Below are positions 7,613 through 59,450 of a stretch of 64,000 bases of DNA, in pieces. How positions within the stretch are numbered: the stretch's first letter is position 1; each line of letters starts with the position of its first letter. A program made the translations under genes and the position numbers. This DNA comes from a virus, in IMG/VR virus record IMGVR_UViG_2974715105_000001, positions 720 through 64,719 of that record; one strand, given 5' to 3'. The notes beneath the pieces were generated by a model, which was given only the letters and a program-made list of their open reading frames with translations, was not told where the DNA came from and did no database searches.

Positions 7613-9910
7613 ATGTTTAAACTTTCCTGGATATTCGGGCGCAAAAAGGATAATGCTGCCTGTTCTGAATCGGCGCCGGAGAAAGTCGCACGAATCCCTC
7701 AGCACGATCCGCTCGACCCTATGATTAAGCTTGGGAAGATTCGCGGCTGGAACGTCGAGCCGGAGAAAGCTCCGGTCATCCGTAGCGTGAAGGATTTTCT
7801 GGAGCCGGGTCTATCCGTCGCAATGGACAGTGCGTATGGTGACGGACCCACCCCAGCCGCGAAAGCTGCCGCTGGCGGCCAGAATCCCTATGTAGTCCCG
7901 ACCATGCTGCAGGACTGGTATAATTCCCAAGGATTCATCGGATACCAAGCTTGCGCCATCATTTCTCAGCACTGGTTGGTTGACAAAGCTTGCTCCATGT
8001 CAGGCGAAGACGCCGCGCGGAACGGATGGGAACTCAAGTCGGACGGCCGGAAGCTGTCGGATGAACAAAGCGCGCTGATCGCCCGGCGCGACATGGAGTT
8101 CCGCATCAAAGACAACCTTGTCGAGCTGAATCGATTCAAGAACGTTTTCGGCGTTCGCATCGCGCTATTCGTAGTGGAATCCGACGATCCTGACTACTAT
8201 GAGAAACCGTTCAACCCTGATGGCATCACCCCCGGCTCTTACAAAGGTATCTCCCAGGTTGACCCGTATTGGGCGATGCCGCAATTGACTGCGGCCTCGA
8301 CTGCAGATCCATCTGCCGAGCACTTTTATGAGCCGGATTTCTGGATCATCAGCGGGAAGAAGTATCATCGCAGCCATCTGGTGGTCGTTCGTGGGCCGCA
8401 GCCGCCAGATATCCTGAAGCCGACATACATTTTCGGAGGCATCCCGCTCACCCAGCGCATTTACGAGCGCGTGTATGCTGCCGAGCGAACTGCGAACGAA
8501 GCGCCGTTGCTGGCGATGTCGAAGCGAACCAGCACCATTCACGTTGACGTGGAAAAGGCCATCGCGAATGAGGATGCCTTCAACGCCCGTCTGGCGTTCT
8601 GGATCGCCAATCGAGACAACCATGGCGTGAAAGTTATTGGTATTGATGAAACCATGGAGCAGTTCGATACGAACCTGTCCGATTTCGACAGCGTCATCAT
8701 GAACCAATATCAGCTGGTTGCGGCCATCGCCAAGACTCCTGCGACGAAGCTACTCGGCACTTCTCCCAAAGGATTCAACGCGACTGGTGAGCACGAGACG
8801 ATTTCTTATCACGAAGAGTTGGAATCGATTCAAGAGCATATATTCGACCCGCTGCTTGAGCGTCATTATTTGCTGCTGGCAAAATCGGAAGCGATCGATG
8901 TACAGCTGGAAATCGTCTGGAACCCTGTGGATTCCACAACCAGCCAGCAGCAAGCCGAGCTGAACAACAAGAAAGCGGCAACTGATGAAATTTACATCAA
9001 CTCCGGCGTCGTGTCTCCGGATGAAGTCCGCGAGCGCCTGCGTGATGATCCGCGCTCCGGCTATAATCGACTCACCGACGATCAGGCCGAAACCGAGCCG
9101 GGCATGTCTCCGGAAAACCTGGCCGAACTCGAAAAGGCCGGTGCGCAGTCGGCGAAGGCGAAAGGCGAGGCCGAGCGAGCCGAAGCCCAAGCGGGCGCCG
9201 TAGAAGGCGCAGGCGACCCAGTTCCGGCCGCTCCACGCGGTACTAAGCCCCTCGCGAAAGCGGCCGAGGAAGGGGCCGGCGAGGCCGCTACACCGCCGTC
9301 GCGGCCGAACCCCAGGGCCGAGCTTCGGAACCTGCTGTCCGATCTACTGTCGAAACTCGAAGCCCTGGACGACGCGCAGGCTCCGGACGGCGTGGACATA
9401 GAGCAGGATGACGCGCCAGGTCTGAAGAGAACGTCAAAGCCGAGCGTATCGGGTATGGAGCCTTCGGTGTTTTCGTCCAACCGCATCGTCGGCCCTCGTG
9501 ATCATTCTGAACTCCAGAGGATCAAGGTCAATGGAATTACTACCTTGATCGAAAATCCGCGCGGAAGTATCCGGCAAGGGAAGGATGGGAGCTGGCGAGT
9601 CCAGATGAAACACCACTATGGGTTCATCAAAGGTACGAAGGGGGCTGATGGTGATGAGGTCGATTGCTTCGTAGGCCCGAACCTTGGTTCGAAACGGGTC
9701 TTCGTCGTCAACCAGGTGAACAAAGAGGGGCAATTCGACGAGCACAAGTGCATGCTCGGCTTCAACAACATCAACGACGCCAAGTCTGGATATCTGTCTT
9801 GCTTCCGTCCGGGCTGGGATGGACTCGGCTCCATCCATGAAGTTGATCTGCCCGCCTTCCGTCGCTGGCTGGCAAACGGCGACACTACGAAGCCATTTGG
9901 AGGCAAGTGA
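7613..9910 (+). CDS. Portal protein with C-terminal pyrophosphatase-like extension (765 aa)
   Basis: First structural gene; DUF1073/anti-CBASS-unrelated portal-type core (LLGTSPKGFNATGEHE); Ala/Pro/Glu linker; terminal ~130-aa domain. Confidence 0.88.
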   Translation: MFKLSWIFGRKKDNAACSESAPEKVARIPQHDPLDPMIKLGKIRGWNVEPEKAPVIRSVKDFLEPGLSVAMDSAYGDGPTPAAKAAAGGQNPYVVPTMLQDWYNSQGFIGYQACAIISQHWLVDKACSMSGEDAARNGWELKSDGRKLSDEQSALIARRDMEFRIKDNLVELNRFKNVFGVRIALFVVESDDPDYYEKPFNPDGITPGSYKGISQVDPYWAMPQLTAASTADPSAEHFYEPDFWIISGKKYHRSHLVVVRGPQPPDILKPTYIFGGIPLTQRIYERVYAAERTANEAPLLAMSKRTSTIHVDVEKAIANEDAFNARLAFWIANRDNHGVKVIGIDETMEQFDTNLSDFDSVIMNQYQLVAAIAKTPATKLLGTSPKGFNATGEHETISYHEELESIQEHIFDPLLERHYLLLAKSEAIDVQLEIVWNPVDSTTSQQQAELNNKKAATDEIYINSGVVSPDEVRERLRDDPRSGYNRLTDDQAETEPGMSPENLAELEKAGAQSAKAKGEAERAEAQAGAVEGAGDPVPAAPRGTKPLAKAAEEGAGEAATPPSRPNPRAELRNLLSDLLSKLEALDDAQAPDGVDIEQDDAPGLKRTSKPSVSGMEPSVFSSNRIVGPRDHSELQRIKVNGITTLIENPRGSIRQGKDGSWRVQMKHHYGFIKGTKGADGDEVDCFVGPNLGSKRVFVVNQVNKEGQFDEHKCMLGFNNINDAKSGYLSCFRPGWDGLGSIHEVDLPAFRRWLANGDTTKPFGGK

Positions 9911-10746
9911 TGGCGTTCAAAGCCTCCAAGAAACGCGAACGCCGGGCGCCTCTTCCAGTCGGAAGAGGCAAGCCCATAATTCCTTCTGCTGGAATCGAAG
10001 CCTGGTATCGAAAGCAAATGAAGGATATTACCAAACTCATGATCGCCGATTATCGAAGTGAAATTGAAAAGGCCATATCCCAGCCCGCGGCCGAACGGTT
10101 CTTCGCGAAAGACGAATCTGTGAACGTCCTGTTCAAGATGACTCTGCGAAGCCTTCAGCAGCGATGGAATCGCATCTTTGAAGGTTTCGCATCCAAAATC
10201 GCTCCTGAGTTCGTCAATCGGGCCGACGAAGCCGCGACCGCTGCGACTCTACATAGCCTGTCAGTTGCCGGCGTCGATCAGCCGCGAGCTTCGTACAATG
10301 AGAGCGTCAGGAACACCCTGGAAGCCGCGACTACTTACAACCATACCCTCATCACCAATATTCAGGAGGAAGTCCACGAGAAAATTTACACATCCGTCAT
10401 GCTGTCTCTGACTTCCCCAAACCCAGAGGAACAAGGAACTTCCGGAATAACAAATGCACTTCGAGAAGTCGGAAGGTTTTCTGAAAACCGAATCGAACTC
10501 ATCGCAAGAGATCAAACCAGTAAACTTTACAGTTCGTTGAGTGATGAGAGAATGGCAGAGAATGGAGTCGAAGAGTTCGAATGGATGCACTCTTCGGCAG
10601 GAAAGACGCCTCGCCATACCCACCTGGAAAAGGACGGGAAAAGATTCAAACTGAATGACCCTAGACTTTGGGAAGGTCCGAAGGCCGACCAAGGGCCGCC
10701 AGGTTGGGCGATTAACTGCCGGTGCAGAAAAATCCCAATCATTTAG
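9910..10746 (+). CDS. MuF-family minor head protein (278 aa)
   Basis: ELIARDQTSK, EFEWMHS...RHTH, PPGWAINCRC motifs; directly after the portal. Confidence 0.88.
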   Translation: MAFKASKKRERRAPLPVGRGKPIIPSAGIEAWYRKQMKDITKLMIADYRSEIEKAISQPAAERFFAKDESVNVLFKMTLRSLQQRWNRIFEGFASKIAPEFVNRADEAATAATLHSLSVAGVDQPRASYNESVRNTLEAATTYNHTLITNIQEEVHEKIYTSVMLSLTSPNPEEQGTSGITNALREVGRFSENRIELIARDQTSKLYSSLSDERMAENGVEEFEWMHSSAGKTPRHTHLEKDGKRFKLNDPRLWEGPKADQGPPGWAINCRCRKIPII

Positions 10747-10765
10747 TCGTCGATAGGAGTGCGAT

Positions 10766-10972
10766 ATGCCGTTAGTCCATGGAACTTCCAATGAAGCCCG
10801 TTCTGAAAACATCAAGCGGGAGATTGAAGCAGGGAAAGACCCGAAACAGGCAGCCGCCATAGCCTATTCCGTCCAGCGCAGCGAGAAAGGGAAGAAGGCG
10901 AAAGATTGTTCGCCTGAACTCGTCGCCGATCTTCGCGCCCTGGTAGACTCGCTGTCGAGGCTCGTGAAATGA
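10766..10972 (+). CDS. Small hypothetical protein (68 aa)
   Basis: RBS AGGAG; [23 protein letters not shown] is a motif common in head-module small proteins. Confidence 0.78.
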
Positions 10973-11106
10973 ACCGAAAGACATGCATACGCCGACTCGC
11001 GACCGATGTAATCAAGGCCAATATTAACGGCGGATTCTTCAGCCTGAAGTTTGCCGCAGTTGATCTGGCCATCATCGGCGTCTCAATCCTGATTGCTTTC
11101 GGCTGA
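10969..11106 (+). CDS. Small membrane protein (45 aa)
   Basis: ATGA overlap; [10 protein letters not shown]...[13 protein letters not shown]; read by eye, not in the ORF track. Confidence 0.6.
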
Positions 11107-11540
11107 TGATGCCGCGAAAATCCGGATTCTGAATAAAAATTCGGGTCCGGATAGCCGCAAATTACCGTTTCTGGGAAATAGCGGTAATTTGGAAAGCCTA
11201 CTGCCGCAAGGCTTTAACATGCTAAATTCCTAATTTCCAATTTCGCCGCATGCCGCAAAAGTATATAGCATGGGAAATTAGGAATAACGTTCTAATAGAA
11301 TTCATCTATAAGTAACGTTATAATATAACGTGAATCGATATGCTCTATACGTATTGAAATTCAATTTTTAATTGGTAAATTGGTAATTTGGATTAGTTTA
11401 AAGATTGAAAGTCTTGCGGCAGTAGGCTTAGACAAATCCCGTCAAATTTCCGAAACCAAGTTACCAGTTTTCGCGGCTGAGGAAATCCGGTAATTAGATC
11501 ACAATACAGATTCTAGTGTAAATTAACAGTCGCGGCTACA
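11107..11540. other. AT-rich non-coding element A with convergent GCCGCRA motifs and nested inverted repeats
   Basis: 17-bp perfect IR at 11194-11210/11413-11429; 13-bp IR at 11226-11238/11273-11285; homologous to 57173-57450. Confidence 0.8.
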
Positions 11541-11560
11541 TCTAATTATTGTTCCGCTTA

Positions 11561-11589
11561 TTTACCCTTGGATGTCCTGCGTATATAAT
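11561..11589 (+). promoter_or_regulatory. Sigma70-like promoter of the head operon
   Basis: TTTACC, 17 nt, TATAAT. Confidence 0.65.
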
Positions 11590-11621
11590 ACAGCCATAGT
11601 CCACGACTCTTCGAATTAACG

Positions 11622-13058
11622 ATGGCAAAGTCGAAAAGAAAAATTGACGAAAATGGATATATGACCATCGAGGGTTGTCCAATCAGCTCTTATGGCATTT
11701 TCCAATATTCTGCCGGTCAACTCGGTCTTCCGGGCGATCCGATGCGGATTGTCAACGTGTATCGTCCGGAGTCTGCCGTTAGCGATCCTGAGTACATCGA
11801 ATCTCTGAAGAATCTCCCGCTGATCGACGAGCACGAAATGCTGTCGGGATTCGACGGCGATGACGACGGCGTGGCTCCCGAAGACAAAGGCGTGGAAGGC
11901 ATCATCACAGCCAACGCCTACTACGAAGCTCCATGGGCTCGCGGCGATATCCGCATCTATTCCCGCAACATGCAGCATCAGCTGGAAAGGGGCAAGGAAG
12001 ATCTGTCCCTAGGCTATAGTTGCCGCTACACTGAGCAACCCGGCATCTGGAATGGAACGCCTTATGAAGTCGTCCAGGACAAGATGCGCGGCAACCACAT
12101 CGCCCTGGTAAAAGAGGGTCGTGTGCCGGGGGCCAGAGTATTGGATGGTCTGTGCTTTGACCATCTCAGTTTTGATTTCAGACCATCCGATGAGGGTAAT
12201 GAAATGGGTCTCAAGAAAGCCAAGCAGAAGACTCCTGTCCAGCGCGCAGGACAAGCTGCTGATTCGGCGGTCGAAGAGTTGCGCGCCCTGTGGCCGAAGC
12301 TCTCTGCATCTGTCCAGAAGTTCCTGGGCGAAGAGGCGCAGGAGCCGGAGCACCAGGAAGGCGCAGCCGCTCCGGCCGAACCGACCGACAGCGAGCACAT
12401 GACCGAGCATCCGACTCTGGAAGGCGCTCAGGGAGACGACGAAGAGCACGAAGAAGCGCCGTCCGTTGTCGATCCGGCCGTGGCCGCCGTCGATCCGGAG
12501 CATCAAGAAGGTGCCGCATCCGAAATGTCCGGTGAAGGCGAAGTCGCCGAACTGATCTCCCAGGTCAAGGCCATTCTGGCTCGACTGGAGGGCACGGTAG
12601 CCGAAGAGGCGGACGAAGAGCATGGCAAAGGTCAAGATGTCGTCGAGGGCTTGGAAGAACAGAGCATCCTCAGCGGCGCGCAAACCGCCAGCGACGATGG
12701 TGGTGAGGGCAAGGATAACAGCGAGGAACTTCCTGAAATGGCACAGAAGAACGCGCAAGATGCTGCAATTCGTGGTCTCTATCGCGACATTGCTGCTAAA
12801 GATCGCCTCTACAAGCGTCTTAGTTCCGTGGTTGGTGCGTTCGATCACCGAGCTATGGACTCGGCTGAAGTCGCTGTTTACGGCGTGAAGAAGCTGGCGA
12901 TCAGCTGTGAGAAGGGCCAGGAAGTTCTGGCGCTCGACATGTACCTGAAAGGCGTCGAAGCTGCTCGTGGCGCGGCCAGCCGTCAATCGAAAGCCCAGGA
13001 TTCGGCCAGTTCTGCTCCGCAGTGCGCCGAGCTGGACAGTTACCTGAAGGGGGAGTAA
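11622..13058 (+). CDS. DUF2213-type prohead protease/scaffold protein (478 aa)
   Basis: N-terminal DUF2213-like domain (DLSLGYSC...GNHIALVKEGR) followed by an acidic scaffold; upstream of the capsid genes. Confidence 0.85.
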   Translation: MAKSKRKIDENGYMTIEGCPISSYGIFQYSAGQLGLPGDPMRIVNVYRPESAVSDPEYIESLKNLPLIDEHEMLSGFDGDDDGVAPEDKGVEGIITANAYYEAPWARGDIRIYSRNMQHQLERGKEDLSLGYSCRYTEQPGIWNGTPYEVVQDKMRGNHIALVKEGRVPGARVLDGLCFDHLSFDFRPSDEGNEMGLKKAKQKTPVQRAGQAADSAVEELRALWPKLSASVQKFLGEEAQEPEHQEGAAAPAEPTDSEHMTEHPTLEGAQGDDEEHEEAPSVVDPAVAAVDPEHQEGAASEMSGEGEVAELISQVKAILARLEGTVAEEADEEHGKGQDVVEGLEEQSILSGAQTASDDGGEGKDNSEELPEMAQKNAQDAAIRGLYRDIAAKDRLYKRLSSVVGAFDHRAMDSAEVAVYGVKKLAISCEKGQEVLALDMYLKGVEAARGAASRQSKAQDSASSAPQCAELDSYLKGE

Positions 13059-13061
13059 CCC

Positions 13062-13697
13062 ATGTTCCAGAAACAAGTCTATCGCCAGTACACTCCTGGT
13101 TTTCCTGGTGATCTGATCGAGGACGGCCCGAAGCGTGCGCGGCCGGGTCGGATCATGGCGTTGGCATCGGTCACTCCGGCCGCGACTGCCACCGGCCCCA
13201 ACCGCATCAGTCGCGCGTTCGGTTACGCAGGTGATGTCGGCTCCCTCGGTGAAGGCCAGCCGAAGACCGTTGCCGCGCGCGCTTCTGAAGTCGTGGTCGG
13301 CGGCGCAACCTTCTTCGGCATCCTCGGCCACCCGAAGCATTATTCTCTGTACGGGTCGGCCGGCGATTCCCTGGCCCCCAGCTATGACCTGCCCGATGGC
13401 TCCGAAGGCGAGTTCTTCGACATGGCCACCGGCCTGGTCGTCGAAATCTTCAACGGCGCCGCCACCGCCCTGGATTTGAGTTACGGCGATCCGGTGGCAT
13501 ATGTACCGAACAACCTGCCTACCGCCGACAACGCCCTGGGCCTGCCGGCCGGCGCCCTGGTCGGTTTCAAGGCTGGCTCCATGCCAACCGGCCTGGTTCA
13601 AATCCCCAACGCGCGTATCGTCAATGCCATCAGCCTGCCTGCCCAGTCGGCGGGGAATCTGGTAGCTGGCGTTACCATCGTCCAGCTCACGCAGTAA
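13062..13697 (+). CDS. Capsid decoration (cement) protein (211 aa)
   Basis: Position between scaffold and major capsid gene; Gly/Ala-rich beta protein. Confidence 0.75.
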   Translation: MFQKQVYRQYTPGFPGDLIEDGPKRARPGRIMALASVTPAATATGPNRISRAFGYAGDVGSLGEGQPKTVAARASEVVVGGATFFGILGHPKHYSLYGSAGDSLAPSYDLPDGSEGEFFDMATGLVVEIFNGAATALDLSYGDPVAYVPNNLPTADNALGLPAGALVGFKAGSMPTGLVQIPNARIVNAISLPAQSAGNLVAGVTIVQLTQ

Positions 13698-40559: not shown

Positions 40560-43500
40560 TCCCCTCTTCTGAATCTTTCTCTGCTTGCGCTGCCAACTTT
40601 GCTTTCTCGCGTTCGGTCAATATCCGCTTGACGGCCTTCACGATGAACATATCGATTCCGCTGAGCTTCCATCCTTTGATGAGGAACCAAGAGCCGGTCG
40701 GCGTCCCTTCGGCAATATTCTTCCCGTACCGAAGATATTTTTCAGGGCGAATCCTGAAACGAATCGGTTGGTCAACCGAGTCATCCACGCACATCAAATC
40801 GAGGAACTGCGACTGGCCTTTGTACATCGGATTCTTTCCTTGGTCAGCCCTCTTCTTCTGGCGGATCGGTTCATTCTCATCCGACAGAACTTTCTTCACC
40901 AGCTTGACGATAACTAGGCCATCGTCGCCATCGCGGATATCCCGAATGTTCTGAATGGGATTTCCGGAAGTCACCCCAACCAACTCAGGATTGTCATATG
41001 CATGGCCCCAGAGCGTATGAGATTCGTTCAAATCCGCGAATTGAACCTCAGAATTGGACAAACTCGCGGCAACTTTCTCCCAATCCTGAAGCGTTTTAAG
41101 ATGGGAGCCGGCCAGCTCTTTATATTGCGCCTTCAACTCCTTCAGTTCAGCTTTCAACTCCTTTAGATCAGCTTTGAGCAGCTTCTCCAGTTCTTTGTCT
41201 CTGCTGACTTTCGCCGAAAGAATCTGGGCTTCCAGCGCGGCAACGTCATCAGCCTTATCCTCTACATCCTGCGCCGAAATCGGGCAATTGGCCAGGGCAA
41301 TCCTCGCGACCTTGACTTCCTCGCGAAGACGCAAGAATCGCTCGGCCTTAGCCGGGCCGAAGCCTTTGGCGTTCATGATGCCGCCGATCAGGCGTCCGTC
41401 CGCTACAACCCAGTTGAGTTCGGAATGCTCCGGGTCCAGGGCCGTATATTCTACGCCTTCTTTGGCCAATTCGCGAAGGATAGACACAGTTTGCTGGTCG
41501 TCCTTCGCCGCCCGAAGGCACGCGGCCGCGTATTCCAGGCGATGATACCGCTTCATGTAGCAAGTCCAGTACGTCACCACGGCATAGCTTACCGAGTGGG
41601 AGCGGTTGAATCCCCAGGCTCCGAACGTCACCATTTCCTGCCAAACTCGGTGAGCGTCTTCCGGGGCGACGCCTATGGTCTTGGCGCCTTCGATGAACAG
41701 TTCTCGGCGCTTGTTGAAGAACTCTTCACCCTTTCGCGCCGACATCGCTTTCCGGATTGCCGACGTTTGTTCCCAGTCGAACTGACCGATGTCCTTCACA
41801 ATTGACATGATCTGTTCTTGGTACAGGAACACGCCATACGTACCAGACAGATACTGCTCGACCTGCGGAACGGTATAGGTCACAGGCTCGCGACCAGCCA
41901 CGCGCTCGATGTATTTAGTGGCCATTCCCGAAGACAACGGACCCGGACGAGCGAGCGCCGTGATGTGGTCGATGTTTTCGAACGCGGTGATATTGATCGC
42001 GTTTGCGACCGAACGAACTGCCTGCCCTTCGAACTGGAAAATGCCGGACATTTTGTCTTCGTTGAGAACATCCAGGACCGCCTTGTCGTTCAAAGGCAAG
42101 TCGTACAACTCCTGCGCAGTCACACAGTTCGCGTCCTGGATGACGCCCAGAGTTCGAAGGCCGAGCGCATCGATCTTGAGGAGATTCAAATATTCCGAAT
42201 CCGGCTTATCGAGCTGCGCGACGCCTTCAGAAGTTACCGTACAGAAGTCGATAACTTCATCGTTGCAGACCAGGATGCCTGCCGCGTGTACGCCAGAGTG
42301 GGATGGGTGAATTTCGAGGTCGCCCATGCAGGCGGACGCGATCTCATACTTTTCGCGGAAGTCGCGGCCGGGCTGAGTTTTTTCGAAAGTATCCTCCAAT
42401 CCTTTTCCATATCGTTCGTCCGCCGAAGTATATTCAATGATCGAGTTTTTGATGTTATCGGTATCATGGAATGGAATGCCGAAGCGCTTCCCGACGTGAG
42501 CGATAACCGACGCGGCCTTCAGCGTATTGATGTTACCGAGCTTCACCACGTTCCAAGTGCCGTATTTCTGCTGGAGATATTCGAACACTAGATAGCGATG
42601 GGTATCGGCGAAGTCGATATCTATATCGGGAAGATCGGAACGGGAAATGTCGATAAAGCGCTGGAAGAGAAGGCGATGCGGGAGCGGATCAACCTCGGTA
42701 ATACCCAGCAGGTAGCAGACCAAAGAGCCGGCCGAAGAGCCGCGAGCCGGGCCGACCAGCATGTGCTTCTTGGCGAACGCAACCAGATCGGCTACCACCA
42801 GGAAGTAGCTGTCGAAGTCTTTCAGCTGAATTTGCTTGATTTCTTCCTGGAACCGATCTTCGTAAGCTTGGGTCCATTCCTTGATGTGGCCGCGACTGAG
42901 ACGGTAGGCTTGGCCCTCGCGAGCCAGGGCGACGATATCACCATCTAGGTGGATCATTGGCGCTTTTGCCAGTTTTACATCGACCAGCTGCTCGACCACC
43001 GCACGAGTATTGGCGGCGGCGGCATCGAACTCTTCGCGAGTCATGATGTGGCGTAAACGGCTCCACAACTCCTCTTCGGTGGCGATGTGGCGAAGGCCGA
43101 CCGATTCCCGCACCTTCCAGGCCGACGCGAAATCAGCATGGTCGATGGACGGCATGTCGTTGTAAGAGGTAATTACCACCGGCTTTCCGAATGCCCTGGC
43201 CGTCTCCATAGCGCCGTGCGCGGCGACCATCGACGCGGGATTGATGTCAATGTAGTCGATTCCGGCCAGATCCAGATGGGCATAGGCCTCGCCAGCGAAT
43301 TTGATGACGCCGTCAGCTTCCTGGAATTCTTGCGGAGTCAATCCTTGATTCTGGACCGACTTGGAAGTCAAGCGGTAGAACTTCTTGGTGTCCTTGGCGA
43401 GCACCCAGGCTTTGAGCTTCAGCTCTTTCTCGCCATCGTCGGCGCATTTGATCGGGATTTCCATGCCGAATCCGCGAGGCAGTTCTGCCTTGGTAGCGGC

Positions 43501-53320: not shown

Positions 53321-53779
53321 ATGGAACAGCAGAAACCTTCGGAAGTAGATGGAGCCATCGTCATGACCGATCTCGATATTCGCATTCTTCGAAAGGCGAA
53401 GCCAGAAGCGCAGGACGAGTGCGCCGTGTCCATGTTCGCAACGGCGATCCGCCAGAAACTGCAGCGCTCCCGCGATAAGGGCCGAGGCGGCTGGATCGAC
53501 TGCGACGAAGATGTTCTGATCAACGGATTCGCCGAACATGCGCTGAAGGGCAATGAGAACAACCTCCTGGACCTGGCGACGTTCCTGATGTTCATGTGGG
53601 TGCGCGGCATCGATGATGCGAAGATTCCCCCGGCGCTCGAAAAGGCGAGACAGCACAAGATCATGGAAGCCTGGAGTCGAATCCATGAAGACGGCCTGAA
53701 CTCCGCCAGAAAGGCGAGCGCTGCGCGACAGTTCGTGGAAGTGCCGCGACGCAAGGGGCGCCCGGAGCGACTTGCATGA
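53321..53779 (+). CDS. Hypothetical all-alpha protein (152 aa)
   Basis: RBS AAGGAG; FATAIRQKLQRSRDKGRGGW...EHALKG...DLATFLMF. Confidence 0.72.
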   Translation: MEQQKPSEVDGAIVMTDLDIRILRKAKPEAQDECAVSMFATAIRQKLQRSRDKGRGGWIDCDEDVLINGFAEHALKGNENNLLDLATFLMFMWVRGIDDAKIPPALEKARQHKIMEAWSRIHEDGLNSARKASAARQFVEVPRRKGRPERLA

Positions 53780-54852
53780 AGCCTCACGAAATAAGACTGG
53801 CCCAGGCCGAAGAGTTCCTGCGCGAACTCGGCCGAGGGATTCCGGACGACGAACGGGTAATGGTCGGCTACGCTGAAGAGGCCACAGTCCAAACCGACGA
53901 GAACGGCCGCAAGCTCAACGCAGGCTGGTGGCCCGTGCCCTGGAAGGAAGGCAAGTACATCAATTCCAGGTCAAACGCCTACGCCTGTATCTCGTCTTCC
54001 ATCAAGACGCCCAACCCGAAGACCGGCCAGATGCGATACTGGCGCGGCGAGGCCTCTTTCGGCCACGGCCTGGCGTTAATGGTCGATGACATCGGCTCCG
54101 GCAAAGGTTCCAAAGGCGACTTCGACCGCGACGAGTTCCGCGAACGCCTGGAGCCGACCGCGATTGTGGAGACTTCGCCGAACAACTACCAGTTCTGGTA
54201 TTTCTTCAAAGAGCCGATGTCCCACATGCTTCAGTTTAAGGCATTGCTCTATTCGTTCGTGGACCAGGTGCTAAAGAAAGGCGGTGACAACACCGTCAAA
54301 GATGTCAGCCGTTATGGTCGCATGCCATTCGGCTTCAACAACAAGCGCGGGAAAGACGGCAACTTCAAGTATGCCGACGAAAACGGCAAACCCGAACTCG
54401 TGCGTCTGTATCACGCAGACTATTCCAAGCGCTACTCGCCAGAGGAAATCACCCAGGCCTTCGGCGTCCGTATCATTATGCCACAGATGAAGAAGGTGGA
54501 GATAAATCGCGACGATTGGGTTTATGACCAAGTATGGCTGAAGTATGCCGAGCATATCTGTACGAAGTACAAGATGGGTGAGGCAGCGGGCGGCCAAGTC
54601 CAACAGAATATGTCCGGCAAATATCGCATCCGCTGCCCATGGGGAGACGAGCATACAAATGGCGATCCATTCGGCGCCTACTTTCGCGGGCCGATCCCTG
54701 GAGCTGAGCACGAATATGTATTCGGCTGCGGCCACGATACTTGCCGCAAAGAGCATCGTCGGACGTGGGCTGCCTTCACGGATGAAGTCGTGCTACCCTA
54801 TATCGTCGAACAATTGGAAAGAATCAACCGCCGTCATATCGGTGAGGAGTAG
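53776..54852 (+). CDS. RepB-type (AEP superfamily) DNA primase (358 aa)
   Basis: LMVDDIG, TAIVETSPNNYQFWY, RYGRMPFGFN; C-terminal CPWGDEH...CGHDTC zinc site. Confidence 0.82.
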   Translation: MKPHEIRLAQAEEFLRELGRGIPDDERVMVGYAEEATVQTDENGRKLNAGWWPVPWKEGKYINSRSNAYACISSSIKTPNPKTGQMRYWRGEASFGHGLALMVDDIGSGKGSKGDFDRDEFRERLEPTAIVETSPNNYQFWYFFKEPMSHMLQFKALLYSFVDQVLKKGGDNTVKDVSRYGRMPFGFNNKRGKDGNFKYADENGKPELVRLYHADYSKRYSPEEITQAFGVRIIMPQMKKVEINRDDWVYDQVWLKYAEHICTKYKMGEAAGGQVQQNMSGKYRIRCPWGDEHTNGDPFGAYFRGPIPGAEHEYVFGCGHDTCRKEHRRTWAAFTDEVVLPYIVEQLERINRRHIGEE

Positions 54853-55190: not shown

Positions 55191-56921
55191 ATGATTATCG
55201 ACGACGATAACATTCTTGATGATGACGAATCGGGGTCCAGTGAGTTCGACCTCACGCAGATAGAAGATGCCGGAATGGACCCTTTGATGACCGCCGCAAG
55301 TAAAGCGGCCGATGATGCGATTGCGAGGAATGAGACGTATCGCGCACAAAAGGCGGCAAAGTATGCCGAGGCTTATGCGGAACCAGATTTGAAGAAGCGA
55401 GCGCGATTGTTGATGCTCGATCAGGCCTTTGATCTTCCGGTCAGCCGGCTAGTGAAAGGACCGTTCGACGACTTCATCACAAAGTACAGCTCGACTTCAG
55501 ACAGCAACTACCTCGCGGTCTATGATACGTTGTTCTGTAAGGGCGACGGAACTGTCCCACACCCGCACTTCGACGAGTTTCGCGGCCGGCTGGTGGACCA
55601 TCGCGGCGTGGCGTTCAACAACAAGACCCTCGACCCGATTGACCTGATGGGCGCCCTCGCGGCTGCGGCCTTGGATGATCCATCGATCAAGAAAACGATT
55701 GAGACTTGCTGCGTTTGGGCGCGTCGATATCGCCGCAACTCGCTGATCGAGACGTTTGAGAAGAAGATACCGGAGTGGGACGGCGAAGAGCGAATTAGCA
55801 CGTTGCTGATCGATCTTTTCAAGCCGTTCGACACCGAATTGAACCGGATGGTGAGCAAGTATTTCTGGCTGAGCCTGTACTGCCGCATCAACTATCCGGG
55901 AATCTCGGCGCCGATCTCGCTGGCATTGATTGGTGGGCAGGATGCGGGTAAATCCTATTTCGGCCTGCTGATCTGCAAAGAGCTGTCGGGCGGTCGCGAT
56001 CTGGCTCCAGTCCAACTCGACCTGAGCCGGCATGACCAGACGCCATTCCTGCGCAACATCACCGGTAACTCGGTTATTGCGAACGTCGGTGAAATGTCCG
56101 GCTTCAAAAAGGGCGACATGGAACGCATCAAAGAGTTCCTGGTGCGATCTTCTGATACATTCGACCAGAAGTTTGAGCCGGGCGAGACGATCAAGCGACA
56201 ATGGATCACCATCATGGACGGCAACGGCTACGATGGACTCCAGCGGGACGACTCTGGTAACCGCCGTTTCTATCCAATGTTCGTGGCGCAACTGCCCGAT
56301 GAGGATGGAAAGCCGAACTGGGTAAAGCCAGGCGACGGCAACGAACCGTTCAAAGTGGACTTCACCGACTTCGGCCGCAAATTCTGGCAAGCGATGGCCG
56401 AGTGCCGCGCCTGGATCGAAGAGCATGGCGTCGATGGCTACCTGAATATGGTGTCGGAGGCAAACCGCGAAGTCCAGAACTTCTCTATTTCGGAAATGGA
56501 GAATGCGCGCGGCGTGGTTCGCGACGATACGATTGATATGTATCTGATCAATGTTCTGATCAGTTGCGAGTTTGAAGAGGTTAAGCCTGGTGGGAATTCC
56601 AAGACTCCTGGGTGGCGTGTCAATACGGTGGAAATCTTGAAGTGGTTCGATATTCTCGCCAGGAAGAAGCCGATTTCTCGCCATTTAACTCCGCACCTGA
56701 AAGCACTTGGGTTCATTCCGAATAAGAACGGCCTGAATGGATGGCTCCTGCCTGCCGATAAAGTTGCCGGTCAGGAAATGATTGGGTCCTTGCCGTCATT
56801 CAACGATGCGCTGATATATATGGTCAGGAAGAATGACGCCGCTGTCTCTGATGATGATGCCATGTCGCATGTCCGCAGAGTCAAGGCAGAGCGAGCCAAG
56901 ATATTGGGCGAGGATTTCTAG
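55191..56921 (+). CDS. VirE/VapE-family P-loop helicase (576 aa)
   Basis: ALIGGQDAGKS Walker A, VGEM, DDSGNRRFYP. Confidence 0.85.
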   Translation: MIIDDDNILDDDESGSSEFDLTQIEDAGMDPLMTAASKAADDAIARNETYRAQKAAKYAEAYAEPDLKKRARLLMLDQAFDLPVSRLVKGPFDDFITKYSSTSDSNYLAVYDTLFCKGDGTVPHPHFDEFRGRLVDHRGVAFNNKTLDPIDLMGALAAAALDDPSIKKTIETCCVWARRYRRNSLIETFEKKIPEWDGEERISTLLIDLFKPFDTELNRMVSKYFWLSLYCRINYPGISAPISLALIGGQDAGKSYFGLLICKELSGGRDLAPVQLDLSRHDQTPFLRNITGNSVIANVGEMSGFKKGDMERIKEFLVRSSDTFDQKFEPGETIKRQWITIMDGNGYDGLQRDDSGNRRFYPMFVAQLPDEDGKPNWVKPGDGNEPFKVDFTDFGRKFWQAMAECRAWIEEHGVDGYLNMVSEANREVQNFSISEMENARGVVRDDTIDMYLINVLISCEFEEVKPGGNSKTPGWRVNTVEILKWFDILARKKPISRHLTPHLKALGFIPNKNGLNGWLLPADKVAGQEMIGSLPSFNDALIYMVRKNDAAVSDDDAMSHVRRVKAERAKILGEDF

Positions 56922-56957
56922 TGTACTGATGCAGTTGGGGTGAATTGTGGTTGGAAT

Positions 56958-56980
56958 AGGCCGCCTTCGGGCGGTCTTTT
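56958..56980 (+). terminator. Intrinsic terminator, UUCG loop
   Basis: AGGCCGCC-TTCG-GGCGGTCT-TTTCTTT. Confidence 0.88.
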
Positions 56981-57172
56981 CTTTGGCGCGGAGAACATTA
57001 ATTTAGCTTGTGAACGGGTGAGGTTTGAAAGCCATGTGGGAATTAGGGTGGCGCGGCGGTGGTGTATTATGGGAAGTTGATAGATTTTCGGTATTGGTCT
57101 GGTGTGTATGATGGTTGGATTTTGCGTGAAATGTTGAGAAATTATGGGTTTGAGGTGGATTTTTTGTGGGAA

Positions 57173-57470
57173 ATAGCCGCAAATTCCTGGATAGCGATTC
57201 TGACTGGGAAGATGGGAGGCCTACTGCCGCGTGGGTTAGCGGCCAATTTCCCGAATTCCCGGTTTTTCGAGCATGGTTTAAAACTATTCTACAGCGAAAA
57301 TCGATTGCACAATCCTAATAGAAAAAATCTATCACGGACGTTACCTATCTTTAAAATTAATAAAATTAATGGGAATTTGGTAATTTGGAATAGTTTAGTC
57401 TTTGAAAGCCTCGCGGCACTAAGCCTGTACACTACCCGGCAAGTTTCCGATTCCGCTCAACTCGCGGCAG
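57173..57470. other. AT-rich non-coding element B, homologous to element A
   Basis: Exact 13-mers ATAGCCGCAAATT and TTGGTAATTTGGA shared with 11151-11453, in the same order. Confidence 0.8.
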
Positions 57471-57902
57471 GGTCGCCGGAAACTTCCGTCCTTCCAATCC
57501 ATGGGCAGCGGCAACACCACGGCGGACTAAGCGGCAAGGTCCAAAACCGGACGAGCGGAACCGGAAATTTGGCAACGGGACAGAATCGCTCATCTGGACA
57601 TATTCCTAACATTCGATTTAACATTCGATCCAAACACTCACCGCCACCATCACCCGCCACCAGCCAATCCGATCCTCACCCACCAGCATACCTCCCATAT
57701 AACATCCTATAACACCACCTAACACTCATTCACCATCCAACCCACCCATACCTACCGACCACCCACAAGCAGCCCATAGACGTGCTCCCTGGCCCCATAG
57801 TACAATCGCGCCATACTCAGTGTCGCGGCAAAGCACTAGGTCCCATCAACAGCCAGGCAACCGCGACGGTCCAAGAATCGAACTCCAGGGACGCAGCAAC
57901 AA

Positions 57903-59350: not shown

Positions 59351-59450
59351 CATTTATTTCAGCATAATGATGACGAACCCGACGAACGGTTGTCGGATGT
59401 GAAAACACAGCAGGACAGGCTGCGGTGTTTTCTGGACGATGCTGCGACGG

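Follow-up and report, generated by a model that had tools for sequence, protein, structure and literature searches.

The pac site of phage P1 consists of short oriented repeats in two clusters, of four and three, placed around the first terminase cut, from which the headful series starts. In SPP1, pac (pacL-pacC-pacR) is located at the terS gene and carries repeats bound by the small terminase (TerS) on both sides of a central cleavage region; to our knowledge, SPP1 has one pac, and no paralogous copy of it upstream of the head genes is known. Pairs of distant paralogous cis elements are represented by SPP1 oriL/oriR and P4 ori/crr, in which repeats for one phage protein stand beside an AT-rich stretch. 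A pac-like pair has also been described in T4, in genes 16 and 19, together with a 'twin ring pac synapsis' model (PMC9611059). Here, we analyzed element A, a non-coding module in a 64,000-nucleotide window that comprises bases 720-64719 of the 65,852-bp virus record IMGVR_UViG_2974715105_000001; the genome was treated as circular. An initial annotation had described A as inverted repeated sites around an AT-rich core and had offered a replication origin, a late-transcription activator platform or a structured RNA as its function. We place about even confidence in a different reading, in which A is a twin of the pac module (element B) that has been conserved but is normally left uncut, and serves as a second platform for the pac-recognition factor, probably TerS, with a regulatory or synaptic role.

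Results

Element A and the packaging start

The window was identified as a PB1/F8-like Pbunavirus and is similar to ~290 Pseudomonas Pbunavirus (PB1-like) genomes at 87-100% identity, the closest being BL6, PA01 and F8. Comparing the window with itself revealed one other place that resembles A, namely element B at 57160-57500. In a global alignment, the two elements are colinear over ~340 bp, with 71% identity in 312 columns (z = 13.8 versus block shuffles). The shared blocks follow each other in the order ATAGCCGCAAAT, CCTACTGCCGC, CTAATAGAA, ATCTAT and ACGTTA, and then TGG(T/G)AATTTGGTAATTTGGA, TTGAAAG, GCGGCA(G/C)TA(G/A)GC, TTTCCGA and TCGCGGC. The core blocks common to both copies are found in A at 11292-11300 (CTAATAGAA), 11315-11320 (ACGTTA), 11373-11392 (TGGTAAATTGGTAATTTGGA) and 11405-11411 (TTGAAAG). 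Relative to the CTAATAGAA anchor, the GCCGC sites on the left of A stand at -138, -89 and -47 and those of B at -139 and -89, and the left half of a 17-bp inverted repeat (IR) of A has its homologue in B in the box CCTACTGCCGCG at 57220-57231. The initial annotation overlooked the paralogy to the packaging-start region in its entry for A, although its idea of a cis-acting protein-binding element with inverted sites and an AT-rich core holds; its separate entry for B had noted a diverged second copy 46 kb away and had proposed a replication or packaging system in two parts.

Published genome ends fall inside the second copy. The Ab27 genome was opened at a fixed read end (Essoh et al., PMC4482731), and 36 of 161 long reads of JG024 begin at 59,376 +/- 5, with a matching pac restriction fragment (Ipoutcha et al., PMC10913387). 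Base 1 of Ab27 and position 59,376 of JG024 both map to window position 57302, in the AT-rich core of B, and the records of PAP8, PA8P1, Ab27 and phage 109 start at 57300-57304 (4 in a 60-row sample of 295 records). Because the published ends and record starts fall at 57300-57304, B is the pac region of the window genome; the putative pac published for JG024, Ab27-29 and SCUT-S1 (PMC10913387, PMC4482731, PMC6521218) is element B, to the nucleotide. The cut at 57301|57302 is 13 nt left of CTAATAGAA, and its equivalent in the alignment is ~11279|11280 in A. PDB entry 7UXE, matched by the TerS gene downstream of B, contains ten chains and represents decameric E217 TerS (PMC9611059).

Within Pbunavirus, the left arm of B in JG024 is nearer to A than the window's own B left arm is, and LMA2-type B left arms have been replaced, yet GGTAATT copies are present in them. 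These patterns point to patchy conversion between the copies, with selection for the motifs themselves. The flanks of B are lopsided: the left one (56990-57170) is G/T-rich and almost C-free, and the right one (57600-57800) is C/A-rich and almost G-free. Similar flanks were seen around B in the distant relatives G002 and G003 (IMG/VR contigs), and A has none of this type.

Sites and repeats of element A

All motif and IR positions listed in the initial annotation were recovered. GCCGCRA is present on the + strand at 11111, 11154, 11203 and 11252 (spacings 43, 49 and 49) and on the - strand at 11414, 11471 and 11530. The 17-bp IR (11194-11210 / 11413-11429) is perfect, the 13-bp IR (11226-11238 / 11273-11285) can be extended to 16 nt at 94%, and the 8-bp IR ATAACGTT / AACGTTAT was confirmed from the sequence at 11284-11291 / 11314-11321. 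The repeat reported as 9 bp exists, but its true length is 10 bp, and it is perfect (11158-11167 / 11182-11191). The hairpin at 11120-11152 appeared in the minimum-energy fold, and the core at 11255-11410 is indeed AT-rich, with 25.6% GC compared with ~45-64% per kb across the window.

Seven GCCGCRA motifs in 434 bp represent the maximum for the window; the best 434-bp stretch elsewhere holds four, and local mononucleotide shuffles gave a mean of 0.03 motifs per 434 bp and never as many as three, so that the cluster cannot be put down to chance. All five GCCGC occurrences are left of the core, and all three GCGGC occurrences are right of it. The regular spacing described initially is exact in its distances but only partly conserved across Pbunaviruses, because the F8-lineage-specific sites 11111 and 11252 are not kept outside that lineage: both are absent from LMA2, KTN6, JG024, Ab27 and LBL3. 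A GCCGC at 11245, missing from the initial list, is conserved in these five phages, as are 11154, 11203 and all three right-arm sites (11414, 11471 and 11530). Therefore, three conserved sites stand on each side of the core. Across the whole window, GCCGCGA/GCCGCAA is over-represented (100 versus 37 expected from dinucleotide shuffles), mostly in coding DNA.

Of the exact 8-mer GGTAATTT / AAATTACC, A holds three copies and B one, while the rest of the 64 kb has none, and the repeats in the elements show an 8-12 bp period. Among Pbunaviruses, A is conserved at the level of the flanking coding DNA (82-98% per 50 bp), with maxima at 11300-11400 (92-98% identity) and at the promoter.

Conservation of the pair in four lineages

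The A/B pair is found at the same two syntenic places, upstream of terS and upstream of the head protease gene, in four lineages: Pbunavirus, two IMG/VR lineages and the E. coli Wifcevirus-like phages. The other three share 41-51% protein identity with the window. A and B are spaced by 16-22 kb over the lineages and by ~20 kb in the window, if one goes rightwards from B around the 65,852-bp circle. The two copies of a lineage resemble each other at 70-77%, and the one cross-lineage DNA search that was run (the G002 element versus the G003 record) found no likeness. Every lineage carries its own short repeat in both of its copies; beside the GGTAATTT type of the window, G002 has runs of TTGCGG, G003 has TATCSGATAA, and the E. 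coli group has runs of CCGTATCAT. Whether the repeats are confined to the two elements was checked in the window and in the G003 record, where 14 of 14 TATCSGATAA matches fall inside the elements. Over the eight elements of the four lineages, 41 of 43 occurrences place GCCGC left or GCGGC right of the AT core. To judge from these sequences, the pair is old, and A and B are in concerted evolution within each lineage.

The E. coli group supplies genome boundaries of its own. The boundary of Mansfield, defined by PhageTerm (PMC6753283), and one ECO71P1 record end fall in the AT core of their own B, before terS. In this group, A is better conserved than B and is 95-100% identical in all 29 records. 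Several records place A ~15.8-15.9 kb from base 1, as in Mansfield, and were apparently opened in or near the B AT core. Additionally, E. coli relatives have been reported or deposited with long direct terminal repeats, of 3,673 bp in Mansfield (MK903282.1; WFH, WFC = MK373776-7). These relatives may therefore package their DNA differently from Pbunavirus, for which a headful mode has been proposed, while the start site is homologous.

Integrity of element A

The genome ends map to B at 57301|57302 instead of to A, which bears indirectly on cutting at A. The element is unbroken in 285 of the 288 Pbunavirus records that hold it and intact in 29/29 E. coli-group records, none of which starts in A, and JG024 long reads have a single preferred start (PMC10913387). 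We infer that A is normally, or at least mostly, not cut.

The E215 record (MF490241.1 / NC_042080.1) starts and ends in the A core, at 11292|11293. This boundary is 13 nt from the cut-homologous position, and the record, a SPAdes single contig deposited as assembled (PMC5971607), is the only one among the 288 that was seen to open in A. Its start suggests that A may be cut at a low level. Loss of B as the reason for the opening at A was ruled out, since B is intact in E215. In HTN3 (PP916316.1, L043 374-627), A holds a perfect 127-bp tandem copy of window 11223-11349, unique in the phage collection, which is probably an untrimmed k = 127 assembler overlap; if so, the assembler opened the circular contig inside A. 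By a rough estimate, two such events in ~290 records have a chance probability of a few per cent, and we treat E215 and HTN3 as a lead, not as evidence of cutting.

Two further records are interrupted at the elements. FBPa35 (ON857938.1) is without window 10284-12627, that is, A plus parts of the essential MuF and protease genes, and FBPa21 (ON857942.1) is without 56920-57431, the B left arm and cut site. We rejected both as viable natural deletions, given the loss of essential gene parts in FBPa35 and a shortfall of ~4 kb in both records; they are probably assembly gaps. Contigs with the core pattern in IMG/VR and JGI metagenomes (4, 5 and 2) were too few for end counts.

Genomic setting and the head-operon promoter

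Element A is held in a 515-bp non-coding gap (11107-11621). The gap is preceded by the portal gene (7613-9910), then a head-morphogenesis gene of MuF type (9907-10746) and two small open reading frames (ORFs); on the other side, the protease/scaffold gene is followed by a virion protein gene and then by the major capsid gene (Table 1). In A, we found no conserved ORF and no terminator, nor is there a terminator between ORF020 and A. An ORF of 45-48 aa whose C-terminal half is hydrophobic stands directly left of A in the window (10969-11106); of the other three lineages, G002 and the E. coli group have one at the corresponding place.

Table 1. Features of elements A and B, neighbouring genes and related lineages
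Feature	Position	Strand	Description
Element A	11107-11560	.	Non-coding module between ORF020 (10969-11106) and the head-operon promoter; colinear paralogue of 57160-57500
Left arm	11154-11258	+	Inward GCCGC at 11154, 11203, 11245, 11252; plus F8-specific 11111
17-bp IR, left half (AAGCCTACTGCCGCAAG)	11194-11210	+	Can form a small local hairpin
AT-rich core	11255-11410	.	25.6% GC; blocks in common with B
Right arm	11413-11536	-	17-bp IR right half 11413-11429; inward GCCGC 11414-11420, 11471-11477, 11530-11536
GGTAATTT-type lineage-specific repeats	11159-11166 (-); 11183-11190, 11273-11280, 11374-11381, 11382-11389, 11489-11496 (+)
Sigma-70-like promoter TTTACC-17-TATAAT	11561-11589	+	Head protease/scaffold/major capsid operon; 10/12 matches; directly right of the last A site
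Head maturation protease/scaffold gene	11622-13058	+	First gene 3' of A; phrog_3778, E = 1.6e-223
VapE-type helicase/primase gene	55191-56921		Directly left of B
Element B	57160-57500	.	pac region; packaging start 57301|57302 (GAAAAT|CGATTG)
Small terminase (TerS) gene, 190 aa	57903-58475	+	Downstream of B; PDB 7UXE 'Small terminase', E = 1.9e-119
G002/G004	IMG/VR contigs		A-B spacing 19.9 kb; copies 73% alike
G003	IMG/VR contig		A-B spacing 21.6 kb
ManiWeber/Wifcevirus group	E. coli phages		A-B spacing 16.3 kb

The LMA2 record lists a predicted promoter at the site equivalent to that of the window, and the KTN6 record annotates one ~12 bp upstream of this site. The other three lineages have equivalent promoters with 9-10 of 12 matches, 24-35 nt upstream of the protease ATG, and in G003, the similarity between A and B continues into the promoter itself. 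Each twin therefore has three parts: the element itself, a promoter of host type and, as its late gene, terS or the head protease gene. It is plausible that A controls the adjoining promoters, together with B at terS. At window 11269-11278, the A core reads TATATAGCCTGGGAAAT in 14-1, LMA2, KTN6 and Ab27, which includes the CTGGG core of the 'alternative' 14-1 promoter motif located ~5 bp from a transcription start site (PMC10914365). The A core of this window has CATGGG there, no enrichment of the motif was found, and it remains a lead.

The activator platform of the initial annotation is upheld in part and keeps some probability, since each of the four lineages has a sigma-70-like promoter beside A. 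In the window and G003, however, the repeats are restricted to A and B. A dedicated transcription-control platform would imply that a lineage-specific phage regulator on the A/B repeats switches the head-operon and terS promoters on late or off early, while the terminase uses B separately. We think this explanation unlikely, to about the same degree as twin origins. It agrees with the promoter-like site and late gene that follow both copies in every lineage, with the extension of the G003 copy homology into the promoter, and with the lack of an own RNA polymerase in these phages, whose near-consensus host-type late promoters need temporal control (PMC10914365). However, the GGTAATTT-type repeats of the window and the TATCSGATAA repeats of G003 are found at no other late operons, including portal, tail and terL; the distance from element to promoter is ~25 bp in A versus ~300 bp in B; an operator would seldom be as large as this ~340-bp element, the core of which is conserved; and the pac cut is at the centre of the same architecture. 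The GCCGC nearest to the promoter stands at ~-63, -76 or -113, depending on the lineage (measured by hand), which argues against simple class-I activator geometry. Given that other late operons lack the repeats and that the promoter spacing varies, we rank a pure transcription role below terminase recognition.

A possible replication origin

No test supported the origin proposed initially: DnaA boxes are lacking, A is beside the skew maximum, and no replication gene is adjacent to it. In the eight elements, A and B included, no DnaA boxes were found beyond single 1-mismatch matches, and the integration host factor (IHF) consensus WATCAANNNNTTR, with <=1 mismatch, gave no conserved site. The cumulative GC skew is weak and noisy, with its minimum at 41,944, a second minimum at ~52 kb and its maximum at 13,164, beside A. 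Putative origins have been placed at skew minima of 42.3 and 52.4 kb, and the same profile was reported for 41 Pbunavirus genomes (PMC12390725). A is thus away from the skew minima, although skew is a weak guide in phages. It is flanked by MuF, two small ORFs and the head protease gene, and it is B, not A, that adjoins the genes for helicase and primase. A RepB-type primase domain is encoded at 53776-54852 (PF16793, E = 1.8e-59), separate from the VapE-type helicase. RepB-type primases of IncQ plasmids initiate synthesis at specific hairpin sites on opposite strands, and this primase is a possible lead to the true origin.

In form, A does have an AT-rich region flanked by repeated sites, and A and B could be two origin copies, in one of which the packaging cut happens to fall. 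We think this unlikely but keep it under consideration, because skew is a weak guide in phages and paired paralogous origins are known from SPP1 and P4. The 25.6% GC core between inverted repeated sites and the position of B, directly after the VapE-type helicase gene and near the RepB-type primase gene, are in keeping with this explanation, and of the pac region, which is AT-rich, the authors of the SCUT-S1 study wrote that it 'could be a replication origin' (PMC6521218). In contrast, the eight elements have no DnaA boxes, the skew minima are at ~41.9 and ~52 kb with A near the maximum at 13.2 kb, and A stands in the middle of the head-gene block, apart from the replication genes. Moreover, the AT core is kept in sequence, whereas unwinding elements are usually kept in composition only; the repeats have an 8-12 bp period; and a physical genome end is within B.

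Possible RNA structure and possible decay

The structured RNA suggested initially found no support either. The two strands of A fold nearly equally (z = -8.0 for the + strand and -6.6 for the - strand), which indicates symmetry at the DNA level, as from nested DNA inverted repeats. Scanning the whole window against Rfam at the gathering threshold and for tRNAs gave no Rfam match and no tRNA. The 10-bp and 13-bp hairpins are disrupted by uncompensated changes in other Pbunaviruses. In the 17-bp IR, only the R of GCCGCRAG changes on both sides, being A:T in the F8 type and G:C in others; this two-sided change is equally expected for symmetric protein half-sites or arm conversion. RNA-library contigs from two RNA-seq runs span A, but they are no proof of transcription, because DNA may be present in such libraries; from a third run, examined as raw reads, no read was placed. 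It is therefore very improbable that A works, by read-through or internal transcription, as a long leader, an RNase III-type processing site or a small RNA. The very strong + strand fold, the lack of a terminator separating ORF020 from A, the contigs and the two-sided change that leaves the 17-bp IR perfect speak for such an RNA, and the points above are joined against it by mismatches in the long IR of B in the window genome and by a motif orientation that is symmetric about a DNA cut site.

A decaying pac duplicate without its own function, or a mobile insert resembling a miniature inverted-repeat transposable element, would account for two copies with terminal inverted repeats and no documented cut at A, but it is the least probable explanation and appears close to refuted by conservation, since the pair is retained at the same two places in four lineages (41-51% protein identity) despite complete sequence turnover, A is conserved like coding DNA and exceeds B in the E. 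coli group (95-100% in 29/29), and A has more lineage-specific repeats than B and a perfect 17-bp IR, the B counterpart of which is mismatched.

Discussion

After analyzing the two elements, we provide a putative explanation for the presence of a pac-like module in front of the head genes. The oriented short sites, the confinement of the repeats to two loci (in the window and G003) and their co-variation within lineages point to one or more dedicated double-stranded DNA-binding proteins acting at both copies. TerS is the economical candidate, because B is the site of terminase action and is located at terS, and A can accordingly be read as a second terminase-recognition platform. We consider TerS the most likely binder of A and B. 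An 8-12 bp repeat period fits a ring oligomer better than 17-22 bp iterons, and a decameric TerS ring suits it. A shares with B the architecture of oriented repeat clusters flanking a cut region, as well as the site offsets; it is neither in nor next to terS, being upstream of the head protease gene ~20 kb rightwards from B.

According to this model, A would act as double-stranded DNA, in which two arms with inward GCCGC(R) sites and GGTAATTT-type repeats surround the conserved AT-rich core. Decameric TerS, with or without a helper protein, would occupy the two arms of A in the same way as those of B. In B, the core would then be cut by the large terminase at GAAAAT|CGATTG, and headful packaging would proceed rightwards. 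At A, the complex would form and be cut rarely or never, covering ~-30 to -480 relative to the head-operon promoter. The bound complex might then link expression of the head genes to occupancy by terminase, a function that B could have for terS itself, or it might be a pairing partner for pac.

Several points weigh against the twin-of-pac model. The E215 record opens in the A core. E217 TerS showed no appreciable binding in vitro to the DNA that was used (PMC9611059). If TerS binds A in the same manner as B, the lack of cutting at A is unexplained. The variable distance between sites and promoter speaks against simple class-I activator geometry, and the shared binder of A and B may instead be a replication initiator.

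We also speculate about a synapsis between the elements, in which stacked TerS rings would join the uncut twin and pac, on one genome or on neighbouring concatemer units, and thereby license the first B cut or gauge concatemer maturity, tying head-protein synthesis to packaging. We hold this to be improbable, more so than the transcription-control or origin explanations. In a weaker variant, A may be a reserve pac used at a low level or under particular conditions, of which the E215 record start is a hint.

The second copy upstream of the head genes is undescribed in the Pbunavirus literature that we consulted (PMC3008698, PMC4482731, PMC5971607, PMC6521218, PMC10913387, PMC10914365, PMC12390725), and the earlier annotation in A consists of predicted sigma-70 promoters only (PMC3008698; LMA2 record). 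New here are also the nucleotide-level agreement of two published ends (Ab27 and JG024), the E. coli lineage, where a PhageTerm boundary falls in B, the finding that the repeats stay within two loci (in the window and G003), the 41/43 orientation count and the E215 record start in A. Pbunaviruses belong to the Pseudomonas phages most often used in therapy, and their genomes are now being rebuilt by synthetic means. For genome engineers, the 450-bp 'gap' before the head genes is not spare space. With A and B, two conserved and clearly delimited modules become available as candidates for terminase recognition, their motifs being GCCGC and the GGTAATTT type, and the fact that one module is cut and the other is apparently not makes the pair a natural experiment on pac cleavability.

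Among the known systems, P1 pac resembles A and B in having repeat clusters on both sides of the cut region, an arrangement of the type discussed in PMC9611059. However, the P1 repeats are Dam-methylatable hexamers, whereas the elements of the window combine GCCGC with a lineage-specific repeat; P1 has an IHF site, and none was found in the eight elements here. Moreover, P1 pac is single and inside the pacA gene, in contrast to a ~340-bp non-coding module with a second, apparently uncut copy 20 kb off. SPP1 pac is like B in its flanking repeats around the cut and in its position at terS, but a single pac stands against two paralogous modules. SPP1 oriL/oriR and P4 ori/crr share with A and B the two distant paralogous repeat elements with an AT-rich stretch. 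Unlike the present pair, in which B holds the packaging start, they are bound by replication initiators and contain no genome end, and the skew and DnaA-box tests do not support an origin here.

T4 resembles our system in its two homologous sites per genome and in a TerS with poor in vitro DNA binding that is able to stack rings; E217 TerS has been proposed to form higher-order oligomers via its C-terminal helix (PMC9611059). The T4 sites are ~24 bp long, in coding genes and a few kb apart, whereas the modules described here are non-coding, ~340 bp long and 16-22 kb from each other, have promoters of their own and are conserved across genera. Should A and B act together, a second, tractable system would stand beside T4, which offers the sole other evidence for a pair of pac sites. 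A synapsis of A and B, if true, would represent the T4 'twin ring pac synapsis' in a defined form that depends on specific sequences and is shared by several myovirus genera.

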